Notes: generated by a model not told the origin, from the letters alone. DNA of 32,000 nt from Candidatus Lokiarchaeum ossiferum (GCA_025839675.1 CP104013.1:90001-122000); one strand, 5' to 3'. Numbered from the stretch's first letter, positions 16,052 to 28,362 are shown. Numbers and translations are program-made.

Positions 16052-16392
16052 TACGAAGTTTAGGAGTAATTTCGTTTTTTTGCTGGATTCTTGAATTCTT
16101 TACACCTCATGATTTTCAAAGGAACTTTATTATGCATACCACAATAATTCTTTTACTTAAGGTTTCGGGAAAAAATTCCGATCATTCAGAATAACTACAT
16201 CATTTTTACTTTTAGCATGATAATTTTTGAAAGTTTCGCCAAAGATCTTATCTTAATGGGAATTTATTGGAGAAAAGTCTTTAATGAAATTCAGATTGGT
16301 TCACGGATGGTTATTTGTTTGAATCCATCTAGAACTTGTTTGAACTTTTTCTTGCAAAAATTAAAAAACACGGATAAAATGAAAATTAATAC

Positions 16393-16656
16393 TTACCAAT
16401 CTTCTTCTTCGTAATCATCATCAAAGATTTCTTCATCTTCTTCAATCTCATCAATGGTTTTTTCAATCAACGATCTTTGCTTAACCGTTAATTTTTCTAT
16501 TTGATGATCATCAATTAAATGCTCTTCTGTGTATTTTATCAATTCATCGAGAGTATCTGCGTAGGCTTCCCAATCGCAGTCATTTCCCAAGTTTGCGCAA
16601 CAGAAATAATATACCATGATAGTTTCATTCCAGCAATTTTTGTGATTATGACTCAA
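16393..16656 (-). CDS. DUF1059-like small protein with strongly acidic C-terminal tail
   Basis: 87 aa. YYFCCANLGNDCDWEAYADTLDELIKYTEEHLIDDHQ resembles the DUF1059 pattern (f.C.dlG.dCdf.a.ge...l......H). The tail is IDEIEEDEEIFDDDYEEEDW*. Confidence 0.6.
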   Translation of the reverse strand: MSHNHKNCWNETIMVYYFCCANLGNDCDWEAYADTLDELIKYTEEHLIDDHQIEKLTVKQRSLIEKTIDEIEEDEEIFDDDYEEEDW

Positions 16657-16747
16657 CTTAATATGAAAAGTGAGTACTTATATCTTAACGCCTCTCTGTA
16701 TTTATATTCATTCATCTGCTACTGAATGAAATGTTTTCGATAACTAG

Positions 16748-17377
16748 CTATGTGATCACAGTTATCAAAGCCTGGGAGTTAACCAATTTAAGAAAAAAAT
16801 GGGCCGATATATTAATTATCAAAAGAAAAAATACTTCAAAATGAAGTAAATTGCCCATTTTTGCCATATGGCTTTTGAAAATACTACAACAAAAATCTGT
16901 TCTATTCAAAGCTTCGAATAATTCATTCAAAACTTCTCGAATCAAGATCTCCAACTGATAACTATAAACTAACTGCGAATCCCAGAGTGTTTCTTGGTCT
17001 CTTCGGACCAAATCAACGAGTTGCCATTGGATCAACCATAGAATATGCTCCTCATCGTAATGGTTTTTGAGATAATTCTGGATTAAATATCGGGCCCCTC
17101 CGTCTGTTATCCCATAGACTTCCAAAGCTTCGAAGGACACTTTTTTTCTTTGTTCCTTCCATAAGTCAGGAGGGAATTTATGATAAAGCGGTTGTAAAAA
17201 ACGAAACTGCACTTTGCTTTCCATTGAATCGTGATAATTCCTATGAATTTGGCGGAGGAGCGATTCGAGGATTTTAATTATGATGACCGTGAAATTCTCG
17301 GGAAAAATTTCCGGCCAATCAATGGGGCGTTGAAACCGTTTATAATCGTTAAGTTCAAGGGAGGGCAAATATTTCAT
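16748..17377 (-). CDS. Hypothetical protein (209 aa), third gene of the STAND-NTPase cassette; hydrophobic C-terminal tail
   Basis: ATG start, 15 nt after the stop of the upstream ORF. The body is helical with a W/Y/L-rich core, and the C-terminus is VFFLLIINISAHFFLKLV. I recognise no family. Confidence 0.6.
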   Translation of the reverse strand: MKYLPSLELNDYKRFQRPIDWPEIFPENFTVIIIKILESLLRQIHRNYHDSMESKVQFRFLQPLYHKFPPDLWKEQRKKVSFEALEVYGITDGGARYLIQNYLKNHYDEEHILWLIQWQLVDLVRRDQETLWDSQLVYSYQLEILIREVLNELFEALNRTDFCCSIFKSHMAKMGNLLHFEVFFLLIINISAHFFLKLVNSQALITVIT

Positions 17378-17392
17378 AGGGTTTTGTCACTC

Positions 17393-17950
17393 TTACTCTT
17401 TTTTAATTTCAGTTGAATAAAGAATTTTCAATCCTTCCAGATAGGATTTCATTTTTGCTAGGAATAAATCCATAGTGTTAGAGAACTCAGGTGAGGATTC
17501 GTTCAATGTGTGGTCCAAATTAATTGAACAAATTTCTTTATAATGGCGAGATTCTTCTCCAAAAATTTCTGCAATAATTGACTTTGCATTCTCCAGATAA
17601 AAGATTTTTTTAGTTTTCCCTGTTGATTTTTGAATGGTATTGATATACGAAGTTATAATCAAGCGTTTGTCCTCATAGTCATCACCCATCATTTTAATTG
17701 CGATTGTGTTTAATTCTTTGAATTTAATCATTGTTTTTTTGTTTAATTGAGCAAAATATTCATTTCTTCTTATAGTTTTTACCAAATTATTAATTTCAAG
17801 GGCATCAATTTTAATCTGGCATTCATGAGCTCGTAGAACTGAATTGATCGCATTTTTTATTTTCTTTTTTGCTCGTCTTCCTTCAGTAAAAGATTGATCC
17901 CAAGCATATTCCAACCCACCTAACGGTGTACTTATTCCTATCTTTCCCAT
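17393..17950 (-). CDS. Hypothetical protein (185 aa), second gene of the STAND-NTPase cassette
   Basis: ATG start, 33 nt after the stop of the NTPase gene. The protein is predicted helical with a basic N-terminal stretch (GRRAKKKIKNAINS). I recognise no family. Confidence 0.6.
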   Translation of the reverse strand: MGKIGISTPLGGLEYAWDQSFTEGRRAKKKIKNAINSVLRAHECQIKIDALEINNLVKTIRRNEYFAQLNKKTMIKFKELNTIAIKMMGDDYEDKRLIITSYINTIQKSTGKTKKIFYLENAKSIIAEIFGEESRHYKEICSINLDHTLNESSPEFSNTMDLFLAKMKSYLEGLKILYSTEIKKE

Positions 17951-17983
17951 TGTGCATCATTGTTTTATAGTTAATATATTTAC

Positions 17984-20302
17984 TTATAATGTTATCGTTG
18001 GTAGATCTAACTTTATCTTCCTACAGCTTCCTCCTTTTACAATATTTTTTACTTGAAGATCATAGCGGGATTCTAATTTTGAAAAAACAGGAAGTAATTG
18101 ATTAATCATTGCTCTATCTGATGATTCAATTTCTGTATCAATATCTAAAACTGATGTCAGATATTTTCGATGGCTATAAATTATTCTATTAAGTTCGAGA
18201 TGAGTCAAGCAGAATTTATTCTGATATCTTTCAAACCAATCCTTGGGATAGGTTTTTTTCATTGTCTTTTTTACCGCCTCTATCCCATCCAAATGCTGAT
18301 TTGCAATACTTTGTAAAAATTTCAAATCTTGGTAAACATGAAAGGGTTTTATATTTGTGAAATCGGTATCACTATATTTCTTTGACATCGATTCAAAAAT
18401 AGATTTTACAATAATTGTATATTTATGAGTGGTTTGAAAACCCATGATATATCCCTTGGGCATAATCAAAATATGATCCGTCATCTTAATCACCTGTTTT
18501 TGGTTTTTGATATTTTCTTGGATAATCTCAATCATGTCAGTTGTTAAATAACCATTTTCCTTATTGCAAAGATCGGCCAAGGATTTAGTGATTTCTTCTG
18601 AATCATTAAATCCAATTTGAGCAAAATCCGTGACCAAAGCTTGCACTTGCACAAGATTGGCAGTAAATTCGGATAAGGGAGGGATAGTTTTATCAAAATC
18701 AAGATCTTGATCGCCTACACTTTTCTTTAGAAGATAGACAAGGATTAAGTACTTCAAGAAGCAATTATGAGCTTTATCTGATTTATATTTATAGAAATCG
18801 ACTATATTAATTATTTTGATTTTATTTTTTTTATTTGAAATCCACGAATAAATTAAAGATTCAAGTTTAACTGCTCGTTTTTTTATGATTTGGTAGACAT
18901 TTTTCTTAGATTTCTTGGGATCACTAGATGTCATGATATAATCAAGAAAATTACATATATCCACGTTGAAATTTCGAATATCTAAGTTTAAAATGGAGAA
19001 TAATCGTTCTTTATTAAAAAGATAGGAAACTTTATTCATTAAAAGAAATAATACATTCCATATCGAAAGGAAGATGTTAAATTCTTCTACATTGAATGTC
19101 TGCGGCAATTGTTTTTTTGTGTATGAAAATAATTGATCAAAACGAAAGCTAATGTCTACTTTTTTGTTGTACTCATTAAAATCACGAATTTTTATGTCAT
19201 AAAAGGGATATTTATTCCGAATCCAACTAATAAATGCATATCTATACCGTTTAAATAGCAATTTCGCAATAAATTCTTTGTCATTAAAATATTGCTCCTT
19301 TTTGATCTTGGCCAATTTACTTTCTGTTAAATTCTCAAAATATTCTTCTGGAGGCTCGAAATGATTTAAGTGATAATCATATAAAATATGCGTATGTGCA
19401 TCGTTTTCTATTTGATCTCCCTTTTTCGGAAATGAGTCTACCAAACTCTCGGGTCGAAGTGTTCCCACGCAATAACCGCTCATATCAAGGGATCGATGAG
19501 TTTCTAATATCGACTGAAGATAAAATCTTTGAAATTTCAACGGGAGTGAATCTAAATTATCAAAGAATAAAATAAATTTTCTATAATCGCCTTCCTCACA
19601 TGAAAATTGTGAAATTCCGGAGATTAAATGCTTAACGGATAAATTTTTTTTTACTTTTTTTAAAATTAGATAAAAATCATCTCTAAAACAAGTAAATAGA
19701 AACTTTTCGAAAATAGGCACTTTATTAGAATTTCTTCGATAGCATTTACTGAAATTTTCACAGAGTCTTGTTTTACACTTTTTGGAGTAAAGTTCAAAAG
19801 CGATTTCTTTTTGTGGGAAAAAGTCTTTTCCATTCAATATATGCTTGCTAAGTTTGAAAAAGGAATCGAGATTAGAATAAAATTGGTTTTTAATTTCTTC
19901 CTTTACAATTTTTTTAAAATCACGCTTAAAACCATCAATATCTAGAGGTTCCAAGTATTGGTGTAGTCTATCTTTGTACTCAGGTCGCTGAAAATCAACA
20001 TAACAAAAATGTACAATTTGCTTGATTTTCTTCTCTAGTAGGATTTTGTGGGTAGTAGTTGTTTTTCCACTCCCTGCGTATCCTAATATTAATATCGGTG
20101 CATTTTGAAACCCAATATTATCCGCGATAATATCTTCTTGACTTGATTTAACATATAATTCGTCATAAAAATCCTTATAACTGAGTTCATCAGGTTTTTT
20201 GTCCAATTCATCAAATTTTGTTAAAAAATATTTAGTGATATAATTCTTAACTTCATAGATTTGAGCTTGATCTGCTTTCATAAATAATCTTTCAGTATCC
20301 AT
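17984..20302 (-). CDS. P-loop NTPase, NACHT-like STAND family (772 aa) with a long C-terminal helical region
   Basis: Walker A is ILILGYAGSGKTTT (K80), Walker-B-like is KFILFFDNLDS (aa 242-252), and CVGTLRPES (aa 278-286) resembles the NACHT TSRP motif. About 480 aa of K/N/F/Y-rich helical sequence follow. ATG start. Confidence 0.75.
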   Translation of the reverse strand: MDTERLFMKADQAQIYEVKNYITKYFLTKFDELDKKPDELSYKDFYDELYVKSSQEDIIADNIGFQNAPILILGYAGSGKTTTTHKILLEKKIKQIVHFCYVDFQRPEYKDRLHQYLEPLDIDGFKRDFKKIVKEEIKNQFYSNLDSFFKLSKHILNGKDFFPQKEIAFELYSKKCKTRLCENFSKCYRRNSNKVPIFEKFLFTCFRDDFYLILKKVKKNLSVKHLISGISQFSCEEGDYRKFILFFDNLDSLPLKFQRFYLQSILETHRSLDMSGYCVGTLRPESLVDSFPKKGDQIENDAHTHILYDYHLNHFEPPEEYFENLTESKLAKIKKEQYFNDKEFIAKLLFKRYRYAFISWIRNKYPFYDIKIRDFNEYNKKVDISFRFDQLFSYTKKQLPQTFNVEEFNIFLSIWNVLFLLMNKVSYLFNKERLFSILNLDIRNFNVDICNFLDYIMTSSDPKKSKKNVYQIIKKRAVKLESLIYSWISNKKNKIKIINIVDFYKYKSDKAHNCFLKYLILVYLLKKSVGDQDLDFDKTIPPLSEFTANLVQVQALVTDFAQIGFNDSEEITKSLADLCNKENGYLTTDMIEIIQENIKNQKQVIKMTDHILIMPKGYIMGFQTTHKYTIIVKSIFESMSKKYSDTDFTNIKPFHVYQDLKFLQSIANQHLDGIEAVKKTMKKTYPKDWFERYQNKFCLTHLELNRIIYSHRKYLTSVLDIDTEIESSDRAMINQLLPVFSKLESRYDLQVKNIVKGGSCRKIKLDLPTITL

Positions 20303-20444
20303 TCGTAACTATTTCCTTATTTTATTTTATCTTTTGTAAAAATACAATTTAGTGAGTATGATGGTTTTATAATATCTACTAATTATTATTTAAACTTTTT
20401 CTTGAAGGGATCTATGTCTAAAATGAAAGAATTTGTACATCTCA

Positions 20445-20479
20445 TTCTAAAAGAAAAGAAAGGGTGAAGCCCCTTCTTT
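20445..20479 (-). terminator. Hairpin plus T-rich tail separating the 615-bp spacer from the NTPase-cassette promoter region
   Basis: On the minus strand, AAAGAAGGG-GCTTCA-CCCTT(T)CTTT (9 bp with one bulge) is followed by TCTTTTAG. Confidence 0.3.
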
Positions 20480-20794
20480 CGCCTGGTAATGATCTAATAA
20501 GGAGGAGTCGCTGGCAAAAAGAAATGGTATAGGTGGTTTACTAATTGGAATGGAAATAAAATGATTTCCAGGAAGAAATACGCGAACTTTGAGATCACGA
20601 CTCTTCACAATTGAGTATCTATGTGAATATAAAAAGCCGAAATTTTGAGTCCATAGAAATTCAGGATTTTTATTATGAAGCTGAAATAAAAATAACTTTA
20701 GCAAGGGGATCTTTCTTAGTAGGTTTTGATTGGTGGCCTGCAGCCATATTTTTGCCTTAAAGAAGATTTTAAACATTAGCGATATATTTTTCAA
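20447..20794 (-). CDS. Doubtful ORF (115 aa) in the 615-bp spacer
   Basis: The track start is a TTG and the first ATG is at aa 7. I see no SD and no recognisable motif. It is kept only because the spacer is otherwise unexplained and a hairpin plus T-tract sits at its 3' end. Confidence 0.2.
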   Translation of the reverse strand: MKNISLMFKIFFKAKIWLQATNQNLLRKIPLLKLFLFQLHNKNPEFLWTQNFGFLYSHRYSIVKSRDLKVRVFLPGNHFISIPISKPPIPFLFASDSSLLDHYQAKEGASPFLFF

Positions 20795-20917
20795 TATCTC
20801 ATCCCGCTTTCTTAAGTAATTCCAAACGTGCTTTAGCGATTTTGTATGATTGCCATAAATGCCTACGGTGCTTTGTAACAGGTTAGCTAAAAAGAATTAA
20901 AAAATATTTTTTCTTGT

Positions 20918-22477
20918 TTATGCGCATATTTGCATCCTCGCTTTTTTTTTTATCCAAAAACTAGTGATTCCAATTAAAATTAGAATCAAAGCTGCAGGAT
21001 ATGTGGGAATACTAAGATCAAAAGGATTTGAGATCTTTTCCTCAAAAAATCCACCATCAGAAATGGACCATCCAAATTCATTAATGATGTGTTCTCGTGC
21101 AGCTTTTGCAGATTCTGTACTATATTGAGCTTCTCCTGCTGAAAATTGAACGTTTTGTTGTAATTGACGTTTTCCCCATCCTTCCAATAAAATATCATAA
21201 TTTGTGGTTGATAATGGTGCTCCACGGAACATATGTCCCATATTCGTCACATTCGAAATATCCCAATTCCCTATAGGTTGATCGAAGGCAGAGTTTGCAA
21301 ACATAAACATCATATCTGTCACACTTGAAACGTCCCAATTTTCTAATGGTTGATTGAAGTGATAAGCATCAGCAAACATACCATTCATATTAATGACCTT
21401 CGAAACATCCCATCTTCCTATATCTTGATTAAATTGGGAGGCAGAATCGAACATTACGGACATAGATGTTACCTCCGAAACATCCCATCCTCCAATATCT
21501 TGATTGAAGTTCTTAGCATAGCTGAACATACCTCCCATTTCTGTAACATTTGAAACATCCCACCTTGATATATCTTGATTAAAATTTTTTGCACTTTGAA
21601 ACATTCCACCCATGTTTGTAACAAATGAAACATCCCAGTCTCCAATATAAAAATTGAATGATGTTGCCCCTGCAAACATTTGTGACATATCTGTGACACA
21701 AGAAACATCCCAGTCTCCAATTGGCTTATTAAAATTCTCCGCTCCAGAATAAATCCATCCCTCTTCACTAGGACTTCCTCCAAACATTTGTGACATATCA
21801 ACGACACGAGAAACATCCCAACTTCCGATATCCTGATTGAATGTTTTTGAATTCATAAACATTCTTCTCATATCTGTTACATGGGAAACATTCCATTGAT
21901 TTAGATTTCCTAAATGTCCTAAATTCTCGCAATCATAAAACATCTCATTGAGTGTGGTTGTATCGGTGAGATTCAATGCATCTGATGCTTTAAGTACTAA
22001 ATTCTTGCATCCTTTGAAGTATCCTCCGGTATTTCCTATTTGTAAACACCCCCATTGCGTGATTTCAATCAGTTTGAGCTCATCACCATTTGCTGGAAAA
22101 TCCCAACCATTAATTATTCCACTGATTTCGATTGTAAAAATCCCTCCAGTAGTATAAGTATGTGTAATTTCTGCTTGATTCCATATAGTAATACTGCTGT
22201 TACTCCCATCACCCCATGCAACCTCAAAATTATAATGTCCAATATTTGAGAGTGGTAATTTCACTTGGTTCGATTCACTATTTCCATCAAGTACGGTATT
22301 CCACACCGATACAAATGTATTTGAACCGTAGGAAGACTTGATGGATTTCATTTTAATGCATTTGTAATTTAATTCTTCATTCGTGGTTGTCGATTCTATA
22401 CTCGCTAATATTCCGATACAGAATAAACTTGTTACCATTAAATATCGTAATGTATTCATGTTGCACTGTTTCATCAT
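20918..22477 (-). CDS. Secreted/surface protein with DUF285 / BspA-type 25-26-residue repeats, N-terminal signal peptide and C-terminal TM anchor
   Basis: 519 aa. The signal-like N-terminus is LRYLMVTSLFCIGILASIES. There are nine repeats of the form FNQ(D/P)IG.WDVS.VT.M..MF. The C-terminus is PTYPAALILILIGITSFWIKKKAR. Confidence 0.85.
   Translation of the reverse strand: MMKQCNMNTLRYLMVTSLFCIGILASIESTTTNEELNYKCIKMKSIKSSYGSNTFVSVWNTVLDGNSESNQVKLPLSNIGHYNFEVAWGDGSNSSITIWNQAEITHTYTTGGIFTIEISGIINGWDFPANGDELKLIEITQWGCLQIGNTGGYFKGCKNLVLKASDALNLTDTTTLNEMFYDCENLGHLGNLNQWNVSHVTDMRRMFMNSKTFNQDIGSWDVSRVVDMSQMFGGSPSEEGWIYSGAENFNKPIGDWDVSCVTDMSQMFAGATSFNFYIGDWDVSFVTNMGGMFQSAKNFNQDISRWDVSNVTEMGGMFSYAKNFNQDIGGWDVSEVTSMSVMFDSASQFNQDIGRWDVSKVINMNGMFADAYHFNQPLENWDVSSVTDMMFMFANSAFDQPIGNWDISNVTNMGHMFRGAPLSTTNYDILLEGWGKRQLQQNVQFSAGEAQYSTESAKAAREHIINEFGWSISDGGFFEEKISNPFDLSIPTYPAALILILIGITSFWIKKKARMQICA
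21255..21895 (-). repeat. Intragenic tandem coding repeat (about 75-nt unit, 9 copies) encoding the WDVS..VT.M repeats of the DUF285/BspA-type protein
   Basis: The plus-strand motif GAAAC(A/G)TCCCA and close variants starts at 21255, 21327, 21401, 21477, 21552, 21627, 21702, 21810 and 21885. The spacings are 72, 74, 76, 75, 75, 75, 108 and 75 nt. Confidence 0.85.
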
Positions 22478-22701
22478 GCATCAATCTTTTGGTTTTGTTG
22501 GACTAATTTTTTTTTGAATTATTACACTAATATCCAAGGAATTTTTAAAATTTTTGAAAGAATTCTAAATATGAAAAACTTTCATTTTTGAGAGTATTTC
22601 GATTGGAAATGGAAAAATTATATCGAAGAAATTACATTGGAAATTCTTAATATTGCTACATAAATATTTATCCCAATTAAATGAAAAACCCCTTTGTTTA
22701 A

Positions 22702-25935: not shown

Positions 25936-28362
25936 GTGGCACATCAATCTTCGGAACAACAAAATTTAAGTTTTCACAACCAACAAAGAATAATTTCGAA
26001 AATACCGGTGCAAGTAGAGAATACTTATTCCGCGGCACAAAATTTAATCAAAATCATTACTGATGTGTCTACTAGCATTATTAAACAGCTTGAAGCAATT
26101 GACGTAGTTGTAAATGGGATTGAAAATTATTCTGTGTTGGCCGAAGAGGTGCATTCACAAACCGAAAGTTCTATGACTTTTGCTCATAAGACTGTAGAAG
26201 TTGCGCATTCGGGTCAAACCGCCACAGACGAAACCATGAATGCTATTGGCAACATTTCAACTTCCGTTGAAAACACGAGAAATGAAATTGATACATTACA
26301 AGAAAAAACGGTAAATATTGGAAATATTTTAAAAAATATGAAAGATATTGCTCAACAAACTAAAATCTTATCTATCAACGCAGCAATTGAAGCAGCACGT
26401 GCAGGGGATGCGGGATATGGATTTGCAGTTGTAGCAGATGAAGTTGGAAAATTAGCAAAAAACAGTGATTTAGCTGCCGAAGAAATCAAAACGATATTAA
26501 TGGATATTGATGTGAGTATTAAAAGAACACTTACTGCAATGAATGACAGCACTAAAAAAGTGAATGATGGAGAGCAAGTGGTGAAGCAAACAGGAATTGT
26601 ATTCGAAGATATTATTAATTCAGTCGAAAATACTCTTGAGGTATTTACCGAAATTAATGAAGGTTTGCATCAACAAAATCAGAATTTAGTTCAAATAATG
26701 CGTTCGACTGAAATTATGGATTCTGAATCTAAAAAAGTATTAATTTTAAGTGACATGGCTTTAAGTAATACTGAAAACACCAAGTCATCATTAACAGAAT
26801 TAGCAAAGATCACAACCCAATTATCAGTAATATCAGAAAGAACGAATCAATTTTTAAATCAAACAGATGTTATCACAGAAAAAGTGCGATTAACAACCCA
26901 TATCCAAAGGGAATTATTAACTTTAGATCCCGCAATTTCCAACGAGATAGAAGCGAACAGAATATTGGCCAATATTCATTCTGGATTAATTACTCTAAAC
27001 GCAGATTTAACAATTTTGCCTGGAGTTGCTAAAAGTTGGTATTTAAAAGAAGATAATTTAACATGGGTGTTTTCCCTTCGAAAAAATGTGAAATTCCATC
27101 ATGGAAGGATGGTTCAAGCGAGTGATGTAAAATTTTCTTTCGAAAGAGTATTAAGTCCTCAATTAAATTCACCTTGCGCATGGTTTTTATATCAAATTGA
27201 AGGAGCGGAAGCCTATCATGATGGGCGCACAAAATCTGTATCAGGAATTACTATAAATAATCAATACCAAATCGAATTGAAATTAAAAAGTCCATATTCA
27301 GGTTTCTTACTAAATTTGGCTCACCCAACATGTTCTATTCTCCCACGCGAAGAAGTTTTAAAGAACCATTTCATTGGATGTGGAAGCTTTTTATTAGATC
27401 AAATTGAAGACCGTTTCTATTTATTGAAGTGTTTTAAGGATTATTACGGTGGTTCTGCATATGCAGATGAAGTTTTAGTTGAATATAATAATCCCAATCT
27501 TGTTGACGATTTAATTGATGGTAAATATGATTTTGTTGATCTGAGAGATTCCACAATAATTGCAAAATTACAAGAAAAGACTCAGCATATGAAAATAGTA
27601 ACCAGTGATTCAATCTCGACGAATTTCCTTACTTTCAATTTTAACTCGAAAAATCCCTTAATTCATGACAAGGATATTAGACTTGCCATAAATTATTCTA
27701 TAGATAAAGCAACAATTAATAAAGAATTGTTATTGGGTCTTGTTGATGAATGTAAAGGTATTTTTCCCCCAAGTATGATCAACGATCTGACATTGCAAGG
27801 GTATAGATATAACGTCACGAAAGCAAGATCTTTGGTACAAGGAAAGAAACACTTGATTGACGGCCATCCTTTAAAAATATTAATTCGGGAAACTGATATT
27901 TTGCATAAAAATCAAAATTTTCTTGTTTTAGAACAGATACGTCAAAATTTGAAACAAATTGGAATTTCATCCCAATATGTTGAGGTTCAATCTGCAAAAT
28001 ATTATACTCGAGCAACTTCACAATTAGGCGATCTGTGTTTCATTGGATGGTTTGCAGACACGGGAGATATGGATAATTATCTCGAGCCTTTACTGAACTA
28101 TTATAATGAAAACAATTTTGGATTTTACAAAAATGAAGAGGTGATGCAGGGTATAATTGATGCTAAGAAAATGATTATTCCTGCTAAACGAATTCAAAAA
28201 TATAAGGAAATCCAAAAATTAATTTTAGCGGATGTTCCTTGGATTTATTTATATCATACGAAAATCATTAGCGCTATTCGGAAGAAGGGAATTGACAATG
28301 TGCAATACTTCCCGACTGGAGCATTAAAAATGGACAATATCTTGATTACTGATACACCTTAG
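25936..28362 (+). CDS. Fusion protein: N-terminal methyl-accepting chemotaxis protein (MCP) signalling domain plus C-terminal ABC-type substrate-binding protein family 5 (DppA/OppA-like) domain; no TM helix
   Basis: 808 aa with a GTG start. The MCP hairpin-tip consensus is IAQQTKILSINAAIEAARAGDAGYGFAVVADEVGKLAKNSDLAAEEI, within about 300 aa of heptad-like coiled coil. It is followed by the SBP_bac_5 pattern ILPGVAKSWYLKEDNLTWVFSLRKNVKFHHGRMVQASDVKFSFERVLSP, then LRLAINYSIDK and WIYLYH. I see no hydrophobic segment or signal peptide. Confidence 0.85.
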   Translation: MAHQSSEQQNLSFHNQQRIISKIPVQVENTYSAAQNLIKIITDVSTSIIKQLEAIDVVVNGIENYSVLAEEVHSQTESSMTFAHKTVEVAHSGQTATDETMNAIGNISTSVENTRNEIDTLQEKTVNIGNILKNMKDIAQQTKILSINAAIEAARAGDAGYGFAVVADEVGKLAKNSDLAAEEIKTILMDIDVSIKRTLTAMNDSTKKVNDGEQVVKQTGIVFEDIINSVENTLEVFTEINEGLHQQNQNLVQIMRSTEIMDSESKKVLILSDMALSNTENTKSSLTELAKITTQLSVISERTNQFLNQTDVITEKVRLTTHIQRELLTLDPAISNEIEANRILANIHSGLITLNADLTILPGVAKSWYLKEDNLTWVFSLRKNVKFHHGRMVQASDVKFSFERVLSPQLNSPCAWFLYQIEGAEAYHDGRTKSVSGITINNQYQIELKLKSPYSGFLLNLAHPTCSILPREEVLKNHFIGCGSFLLDQIEDRFYLLKCFKDYYGGSAYADEVLVEYNNPNLVDDLIDGKYDFVDLRDSTIIAKLQEKTQHMKIVTSDSISTNFLTFNFNSKNPLIHDKDIRLAINYSIDKATINKELLLGLVDECKGIFPPSMINDLTLQGYRYNVTKARSLVQGKKHLIDGHPLKILIRETDILHKNQNFLVLEQIRQNLKQIGISSQYVEVQSAKYYTRATSQLGDLCFIGWFADTGDMDNYLEPLLNYYNENNFGFYKNEEVMQGIIDAKKMIIPAKRIQKYKEIQKLILADVPWIYLYHTKIISAIRKKGIDNVQYFPTGALKMDNILITDTP

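Follow-up and report, generated by a model that had tools for sequence, protein, structure and literature searches.

Prokaryotic nucleoside triphosphatases (NTPases) of the STAND class serve antiviral systems such as Avs (AVAST) and those built on bacterial NACHT proteins. In Avs5, the NTPase domain is the one catalogued as nSTAND3, and an arginine at the tip of the strand equivalent to the sensor-1 strand discussed below is essential. A differently constituted system, MADS, is detected when Mad6 (a kinase), Mad7 (DptG-like) and Mad8 occur together within 10 genes, and it also comprises a methylase and a specificity subunit; Mad8 has been described as HerA/DptH-like, and its PADLOC model was built from pooled HHpred hits. 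Here we compare with these and related systems a three-gene cassette, annotated NEF87_000094-96, in a 32,000-nucleotide stretch of the Candidatus Lokiarchaeum ossiferum strain B-35 genome (GCA_025839675.1, CP104013.1:90001-122000; hereafter the window, in which positions are counted from the first letter). Its largest product is an NTPase of 772 aa, and we tentatively read the cassette as an accessory conflict- or defence-type module peculiar to this strain, in which a STAND-like NTPase works with a variable membrane partner, a reading to which we grant somewhat less than an even chance.

All three open reading frames (ORFs) lie on the minus strand and begin with ATG. The NTPase gene, NEF87_000096, occupies 17984-20302 (ORF call and exact-sequence look-up) and is followed, 33 nt to its 3' side, by NEF87_000095 (185 aa, 17393-17950) and, after a further 15 nt, by NEF87_000094 (209 aa, 16748-17377). 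On its 5' side lies a 615-nt minus-strand spacer without an annotated gene (20303-20917). Coordinates, gaps and spacer are all as the original prediction, a reading of the sequence made before this analysis, had given them. The short same-strand gaps suggest, as far as gene arrangement can, that the three ORFs are co-transcribed.

The NTPase carries GYAGSGKTT with the Walker A lysine K80, ILFFDNLDS at residues 244-252 and GTLRPES at 280-286, precisely where they had been placed, and K80 is separated from D248 by 168 residues, as had been estimated. An exhaustive phmmer (HMMER) search over 1.84 billion protein cluster representatives returned 21 relatives (E from 2e-37 to 7e-4, identity at most 30%), most of them 660-780 aa long and aligned along the whole length; nothing more than 30% identical was found anywhere in that library. 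In an alignment of 17 members, with an overall identity of 17-26%, the residues G74, G77, G79, K80, D248, D251, R283, R352, N439, R443, C514 and W689 are invariant, R283 lying within a motif IRxEN directly after the strand 276-282. Since the motif residues K80, D248, D251 and R283 are invariant at so low an identity, the three motifs are exactly those that the family conserves for nucleotide binding. The long distance from Walker A to Walker B is likewise a family property: a helical insert of 115-137 aa is present in all 17 members and is soluble in each (Kyte-Doolittle (KD) maxima of 0.15-1.65, no transmembrane helix). The expectation of a P-loop NTPase without a fused effector was thus borne out, in that the protein is a conserved one of AAA+/STAND type to which no effector is fused. 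As judged from these alignments, the family is real and under constraint, and it represents a rare, uncatalogued clade of soluble AAA+/STAND-like NTPases; at the family level, the evidence comes from about 20 metagenomic singletons.

An AlphaFold2 model computed from the family alignment (predicted template-modelling score, pTM, of 0.76 for the full protein; pTM 0.85 and a predicted local distance difference test score, pLDDT, of 84 for residues 400-772) places these elements in a five-stranded core. In the model, N-terminal helices (residues 1-65) precede the P-loop; strand 2 (97-103) is followed by the all-helical insert (about H107-H234), by the Walker B strand (242-248, leading into FDNLD with D248 and D251) and by the sensor-1 strand (276-282), at whose end stands R283. 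Residues 289-337 form a disordered loop, after which come the fifth strand and a helical lid with the invariant R352. Beyond the core, the model predicts a helical domain containing N439, R443 and C514, winged-helix-like beta-hairpins flanked by helices at about 550-613, and a helical bundle at the C-terminus that includes W689 and Y693. The winged-helix-like element, with its conserved 'WLTPRG' wing, ranks with the most strongly conserved regions of the family. The roughly 480 C-terminal residues had been proposed to act as a sensor; in the model they look like lid and helical domain, winged-helix-like element and helical bundle, and not like a sensor of the repeat type.

Structural comparison of the model by Foldseek gave nothing in the PDB at E of 0.001 or below. 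The best-ranked PDB entries were RdrA of RADAR (8fnu, E 7.5e-3), Orc5, Orc4, Cdc6 and BrxC, none of them significant, and the Orc/Cdc6 matches reached probabilities of up to 0.98 (Orc5, 0.98) at template-modelling scores (TM-scores) of 0.4 or less. Against viral models, the top match was a phage 'NLR family CARD' protein (E 0.015, non-significant), and a giant-virus KAP protein was among the weak fold matches; the C-terminal half taken by itself had no structural neighbour by Foldseek (best E 2.1). Structure prediction, to which the original prediction had looked, thus bears out an AAA+/STAND-type core and yields no significant structural match.

Sequence profiles lead to a similar picture. 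The 772-aa protein falls below every family threshold of Pfam, NCBIfam and PADLOC and is in no curated family, nor is either of the other two genes claimed by a known family or defence system in these collections, as had been anticipated. Its own matches are at the P-loop level (SRP54, 8e-5; mad8, 3.5e-6; AAA_16, 0.13; NACHT, 0.21); PHROGs gave P-loop-level matches at most, and the PDB, searched by sequence with the protein alone, with the complete profile and with a profile of the core minus its insert, gave P-loop-level matches only, to SRP54, ABCE1, RecA, midasin and dynein. In PADLOC-DB v2, besides mad8 at 3.5e-6, it matches two CARF-related models at E 0.004-0.006; no complete system was found and the small proteins had no matches. 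Across the 17 members, sub-threshold Pfam matches recur to AAA_16 (15/17), nSTAND3 (10/17, best E 2e-6), NPHP3_N (8/17), NACHT (8/17) and NB-ARC (5/17). The nSTAND3 gathering score is reached by one member, P0015 (27.9 bits vs 27.2), and that of NPHP3_N by two, P0012 and P0016, and these threshold-level alignments end where the insert begins; when the insert is excised in silico, the P0012 core aligns to nSTAND3 positions 1-124 of 155 with 28.1 bits, at the gathering score.

The criteria for the STAND class are reportedly those of Leipe, Koonin and Aravind from 2004. The family shows an ASCE P-loop core, in which the Walker A GxxGxGK[ST] and the Walker B aspartate are seen both as invariant columns and in the model, and a conserved arginine, R283, directly C-terminal to the sensor-1 strand. 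The definition also asks for a helical domain with a GxP motif and then a winged-helix domain after the core, for which the modelled helical domain and winged-helix-like hairpins are candidates. We therefore assign the 772-aa protein to the STAND/ORC-Cdc6 branch of AAA+ NTPases, on account of its fold and of weak profile matches; its sensor-1 arginine is of STAND type and its Walker B is extended. Membership in the NACHT family proper (PF05729) is not demonstrated: the protein scores 11.9 bits over residues 69-98 only, where a gathering score of 26.7 and an alignment through the hhhhDGhDE and TSRP motifs would be required, the best score within the family is 23.0 bits and is confined to the P-loop, and the Walker B reads D-N-x-D and not D-G-h-D-E. 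The label 'NACHT-like' is consequently not established, as these matches are sub-threshold and limited to the P-loop and the fold ranks favour ORC/Cdc6, RdrA and BrxC equally with NLRs.

What accompanies the NTPase elsewhere was examined at 11 distinct homologue loci, eight of which have a same-strand neighbour. The original prediction had envisaged a three-gene system and had itself looked to co-occurrence in other genomes as the arbiter. BLAST of the called genes and of all six-frame ORFs at the 11 loci found no relative of the 185- or the 209-aa protein (0/11), and the strict three-gene idea therefore fails. A looser regularity was found in its place: at all eight loci with a same-strand neighbour (8/8), the adjacent ORF has a transmembrane-like segment (KD at least 1.8), compared with a background of 31% among the remaining genes of window and loci (binomial P about 9e-5). 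The sample is small, eight short metagenomic contigs, and the KD scale is a crude predictor. The partners lie downstream at L001 (88+ aa), L006 (341 aa), L008 (378 aa) and L014 (81 aa, then 629 aa), and upstream at L011 (129 aa, overlapping) and L012 (97 aa, gap 4 nt); at L003 (182 aa, then 315+ aa) and L009 (423 aa) the gaps are 33 nt and 24 nt, respectively. They are mutually unrelated in sequence, and an effector-associated domain common to partners and NTPase N-terminus was sought by all-against-all BLAST, which came back empty. At L005, the NTPase homologue has no same-strand partner at all, and the window itself fits the membrane-partner rule only through the marginal tail of its 209-aa protein.

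Among the other neighbours of several homologues are genes linked to defence or mobility, which encode DUF4917 (SIR2-like), an AAA_15/AAA_21 ATPase, HerA/DUF87, an IS110 transposase, directly upstream of the NTPase homologue at L009, and PAPS_reduct with DUF3440. Two loci look like larger composite modules. At L006 (2940-5727), the NTPase homologue is followed by the multi-transmembrane 341-aa protein, whose gene overlaps that of a 592-aa AAA_15/AAA_21 ATPase, and at L014 (1607-7416), the DUF4917 protein is encoded directly upstream of the homologue and the 81- and 629-aa membrane proteins downstream.

As for the two small ORFs of the cassette, no stop-free run of at least 185 codons arose in 200 shuffles of the window (32% GC), and ORFs of this length are thus not chance products at that composition. 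The codon-usage scores of the 772-aa ORF (0.108) and of the 185-aa ORF (0.133) are gene-like, confident genes scoring 0.06-0.25; that of the 209-aa ORF is marginal (0.012), its own frame still being the best of six. The 185-aa product is soluble and lysine-rich (maximum KD 0.53) and is a possible adaptor. In the 209-aa product, the hydrophobic tail that had been noted earlier does exist, at residues 177-200, and is of marginal strength (maximum KD 1.85); this protein is a candidate tail-anchored membrane partner. Each forms a singleton cluster found only in B-35, and their description as unrecognisable stands, with no match to either in Pfam, NCBIfam, PADLOC or PHROGs (185-aa protein: at E of 0.001 or below). 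The 185-aa protein was also compared with the similarly placed 182-aa ORF of L003, and homology was rejected (E = 47). In a separate observation, the three cassette ORFs are read in a common frame (1 mod 3 for the starts at 20302, 17950 and 17377), each of the two short gaps carries two in-frame stops, and 185 + 209 = 394 aa comes near the 341-423 aa of partner genes at homologue loci, arithmetic that would be compatible with a split gene.

Whether the cassette sits in a variable island had been posed as a question, and comparison with strain B-36 (6.27-Mb genome; average nucleotide identity to B-35 of 97.2%) places it in a strain-variable segment. By exact-sequence look-ups, NEF87_000089-92 correspond to XEO75076-79 and NEF87_000098-99 to XEO75081-82 of B-36. 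NEF87_000093-97 are confined to B-35 at 90% identity, and a single B-36 gene, XEO75080, fills the gap. The B-35-specific segment spans about 16100-22650, roughly 6.5 kb, its boundaries being inferred from cluster look-ups, and encodes a DUF1059 protein, the 209-, 185- and 772-aa proteins and a DUF285/BspA protein. The collection searched includes the proteins of B-36, and as it contained nothing more than 30% identical to the 772-aa protein, the NTPase gene is absent from B-36. Both flanking members of the segment, the DUF1059 gene NEF87_000093 (16393-16617, minus strand) and the gene for the DUF285/BspA surface protein NEF87_000097 (20918-22477, minus strand, with 75-nt periodic internal repeats), are likewise B-35-specific at 90% identity, and the variable segment thus exceeds the cassette. 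The DUF1059 gene may be co-transcribed with it.

How such a module could operate, from the sensing of a trigger through oligomerisation to effector activation, and including any role of the two small proteins, is something that we infer. At rest, the NTPase would be an ADP-bound or otherwise closed monomer. A trigger, for example a viral protein or nucleic acid, would contact the conserved C-terminal module made up of helical domain, winged-helix-like element and helical bundle, upon which nucleotide exchange and oligomerisation could follow via the P-loop core (K80, D248/D251 and the sensor-1 arginine R283). The assembled NTPase could then act on a separate membrane-associated partner, with membrane perturbation or growth arrest as the conceivable outcome. 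Elsewhere this partner would be the fast-evolving membrane protein encoded next to the NTPase; in B-35, its part might be played by the 209-aa protein with its hydrophobic tail, the soluble 185-aa protein perhaps serving as adaptor. Of the sensor NTPase with two separately encoded effectors or adaptors that had been proposed, the NTPase and the strain-variable locus thus stand, and the conserved triplet gives way to the looser membrane-partner rule. In its most specific form, the proposal would hold that NEF87_000096 and its roughly 20 relatives, from one Asgard archaeon, uncultured AT-rich lineages and at least one contig with bacterial-type neighbours, constitute a new STAND-like NTPase clade, set apart by a helical insert within the domain that is unique to it and by a C-terminal module without a solved analogue; together with hypervariable separate membrane proteins, these NTPases would form an abortive-infection or defence system of two or three genes, employing in L. 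ossiferum a 185-aa soluble adaptor and a 209-aa tail-anchored effector. Taken in all its parts, we consider this proposal doubtful.

Several observations weigh against the reading of the cassette as a defence-type module with a membrane partner. No significant match to a defence family or to a solved STAND structure was obtained, the Foldseek E-values all being 0.0075 or higher, and the NTPase core from the window, with its insert excised, has no Pfam match at 1e-3. The mad8 match, though seen in 15/17 members, is to a generic P-loop model derived from HerA. With respect to the partners, whether the upstream or the downstream side was counted was decided after seeing the data; as they lack sequence similarity to one another, the functional link is one of position and hydrophobicity. 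In the window, moreover, the gene adjacent to the NTPase encodes a non-membrane protein, that of 185 aa, and the 209-aa protein has both a marginal tail and atypical codon usage. Finally, the wider window encodes core metabolism and a ribosomal protein and is not a defence island, and published PADLOC and DefenseFinder surveys of B-35 name other systems and not the cassette locus.

These points have to be set beside other explanations of the same locus. The NTPase could work by itself as a signal-transducing ATPase. It might, for instance, be a regulator associated with transcription or with DNA that operates by way of its winged-helix-like element, in the manner of MalT/AfsR-type STAND proteins; the small ORFs would then be unrelated lineage-specific orphans, and no three-component system would exist. 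That no homologue locus holds a relative of the 185- or 209-aa protein, that L005 has no same-strand partner, that the winged-helix-like element with its 'WLTPRG' wing belongs to the best-conserved parts of the family and that the codon usage of the 209-aa ORF is atypical would all be accounted for in this way. However, the 33- and 15-nt same-strand gaps suggest co-transcription, membrane-protein genes adjoin the NTPase in 8/8 informative loci, and no helix-turn-helix family in Pfam matches the 772-aa protein. In the nucleotide-binding module of STAND/ORC proteins, furthermore, a winged helix is a built-in component that does not bind DNA. We consider a stand-alone regulator rather unlikely.

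Alternatively, the segment could be the remnant of a mobile or integrated element, the NTPase being its Orc1/Cdc6-like initiator or a AAA+ protein of transposition or partition and the small ORFs its cargo. This would agree with the high Foldseek ranks of Orc5, Orc4, Cdc6 and Orc1/Cdc6 (probability up to 0.98), with the strain-specificity of the segment and with the IS110 transposase directly upstream of the L009 homologue. The window, however, contains no integrase, transposase or tRNA; flanking direct or inverted repeats, considered as insertion marks, were rejected as short chance-level matches, and there are no origin-like repeats nearby. Phage, plasmid and IMG/VR collections contain no relatives; single-protein scans of genome, viral and metagenome contigs also gave no relatives, a result that we do not count as evidence. 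An Orc1/Cdc6 initiator as such is not supported, as neither Pfam nor NCBIfam gives a Cdc6/Orc match, the Walker B reads D-N-x-D and not D-E, and the sensor-1 residue is Arg and not Asn/Thr; an origin in a mobile element appears very unlikely to us. Decay offers another explanation, in which the NTPase gene is intact and the small ORFs are non-functional pieces left when stops split a partner gene that once encoded about 400 aa. The common reading frame of the three ORFs, the sum of 394 aa set beside partners of 341-423 aa, the weak codon score of the 209-aa ORF and the singleton status of both small proteins speak for it, but each gap holds two in-frame stops and not one, the 185-aa ORF has its own ATG and gene-like codon usage, its product lacks the N-terminal transmembrane helix seen in the long partners, and neither small protein resembles any of those partners, which makes a decaying locus improbable in our judgement. 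We therefore retain the accessory module of NTPase and variable membrane partner as our working interpretation, with the reservation expressed at the outset.

The spacer 5' of the NTPase gene holds several features that bear on transcription of the cassette. The hairpin with T-tract that had been claimed there is present (20449-20480, terminator scan and RNA folding): a consensus terminator scan places a stem of 6 bp at 20476-20459, with CTTTTCTTTT after it, and RNA folding finds an 11-bp stem of -13.7 kcal/mol in which the T-tract itself forms the 3' arm. The evidence for a terminator is weak, as the fold has a z-score of -1.6 with equally good folds in 14/200 shuffles and the region has 4 terminator-like sites vs 4.0 expected from shuffles. 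The 'insulated transcription unit' of the original prediction was built on this hairpin, which is no better than chance, and we treat it as presumptive. Archaeal transcription termination depends mainly on oligo-T, so the T-tract at the hairpin could still stop an upstream transcript. A TATA-like TTTAAATA lies about 85-92 nt 5' of the ATG of the 772-aa gene.

Some further observations concern the same spacer and the surroundings of the cassette. A 19-nt near-repeat occurs at 20386-20404 and at 16336-16354 (minus strand, CAAGAAAAAGTT[T/C]AAA[T/C]AA), one copy 5' of the 772-aa gene and the other 5' of NEF87_000092; the copy at 20386-20404 includes the TATA-like box, and the near-repeat may be a shared promoter element. 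At 20447-20794 on the minus strand, the spacer also contains an unannotated TTG ORF of 115 codons, F/L-rich and with a poor codon score (-0.06), that ends exactly at the hairpin/T-tract. A decayed gene is one conceivable identity, an untranslated or non-coding RNA region another, and an Rfam scan of the window gave no RNA family. The neighbours in the cassette region are DUF285, L10e, DUF1059, GNAT and PadR genes. Farther away, at 25936-28362 on the plus strand, a protein of 808 aa is predicted to combine a methyl-accepting chemotaxis protein (MCP) signalling domain (residues 90-263) with a family-5 solute-binding domain (360-726), which would be an unusual chemoreceptor-like architecture.

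The Lokiarchaeum lineage is a central one for asking how eukaryotic NLR-like immunity originated, and the cassette, if functional, would mean that a cultured Asgard archaeon possesses an immune-type NTPase module not yet catalogued. The papers and supplements consulted do not mention its locus tags. The sister strain B-36 is without the module, and it is from a B-36 culture that an infecting virus has recently been obtained. With a cultured Asgard host and a sister strain that lacks the cassette, the question is testable. A conserved soluble ATPase coupled to sequence-unrelated membrane partners would, if true, be a useful case of effector swapping, and the C-terminal module would represent a new sensor or regulatory fold. 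Were the cassette non-functional, it would still illustrate cleanly both a rare orphan AAA+ family and, in Lokiarchaeum, gene flux at the level of strains.

It remains to set the cassette against the systems that it resembles. MADS merits consideration because its Mad8 model (PDLC04140) is the only defence model matched consistently by the family, in 15/17 members with a best E of 5.8e-8 and, in the protein from the window, over residues 66-275. None of the other MADS components is encoded near the cassette and the model is a generic one drawn from pooled HerA-like hits, for which reasons the cassette is not MADS and membership was rejected. The modelled core of the cassette NTPase, moreover, is AAA+-like, with five strands and a lid, and is not the larger sheet of RecA/HerA type. 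KAP NTPases and Tmn resemble the cassette in having a large insertion in the NTPase domain, placed between the two Walker motifs, and in being linked to the membrane. They differ in that the insert is here soluble in 17/17 members, without a transmembrane helix, and the membrane element is a separate gene; assignment to the KAP family, which has two or four transmembrane helices within the NTPase domain, was rejected on account of the non-hydrophobic insert. With ORC/Cdc6, with RdrA of RADAR and with BrxC of BREX, the modelled cassette NTPase has in common the overall succession of AAA+ core, helical lid and winged-helix-like element. However, the E-values of the matches to this whole group are non-significant and the TM-scores do not exceed 0.4, the cassette has no RdrB adenosine deaminase and no PglX, PglZ or BrxB partner, its sensor-1 residue is an arginine, and it gives no Cdc6_C/ORC profile match.

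The likeness to the STAND proteins of antiviral systems (Avs/AVAST, Avs5 with nSTAND3, bacterial NACHT) extends over more features: the same P-loop GxxGxGK[ST], a Walker B that is extended in both cases by a second conserved acidic residue (FDNxD in the cassette family, hhhhDGhDE in NACHT), the same invariant arginine at the tip of the sensor-1 strand, a predicted helical domain and winged-helix-like element after the core, weak and recurrent matches of the family to nSTAND3, NPHP3_N, NACHT and NB-ARC, and a likewise accessory, strain-variable location. On the other hand, the cassette NTPase has neither a fused N-terminal effector nor a TPR, LRR or WD40-type repeat sensor; its family has a helical insert of 115-137 aa between strand 2 and Walker B and an Asn after the Walker B Asp; its matches stay at or below threshold and mostly within the P-loop, with no significant structural match; and its putative effector is a separate gene whose sequence is not conserved. 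Taken together, STAND-like NTPase modules with separate effectors are of an already known kind, and what this locus brings to them is an uncatalogued NTPase clade, a C-terminal module without a solved analogue and orphan partners.

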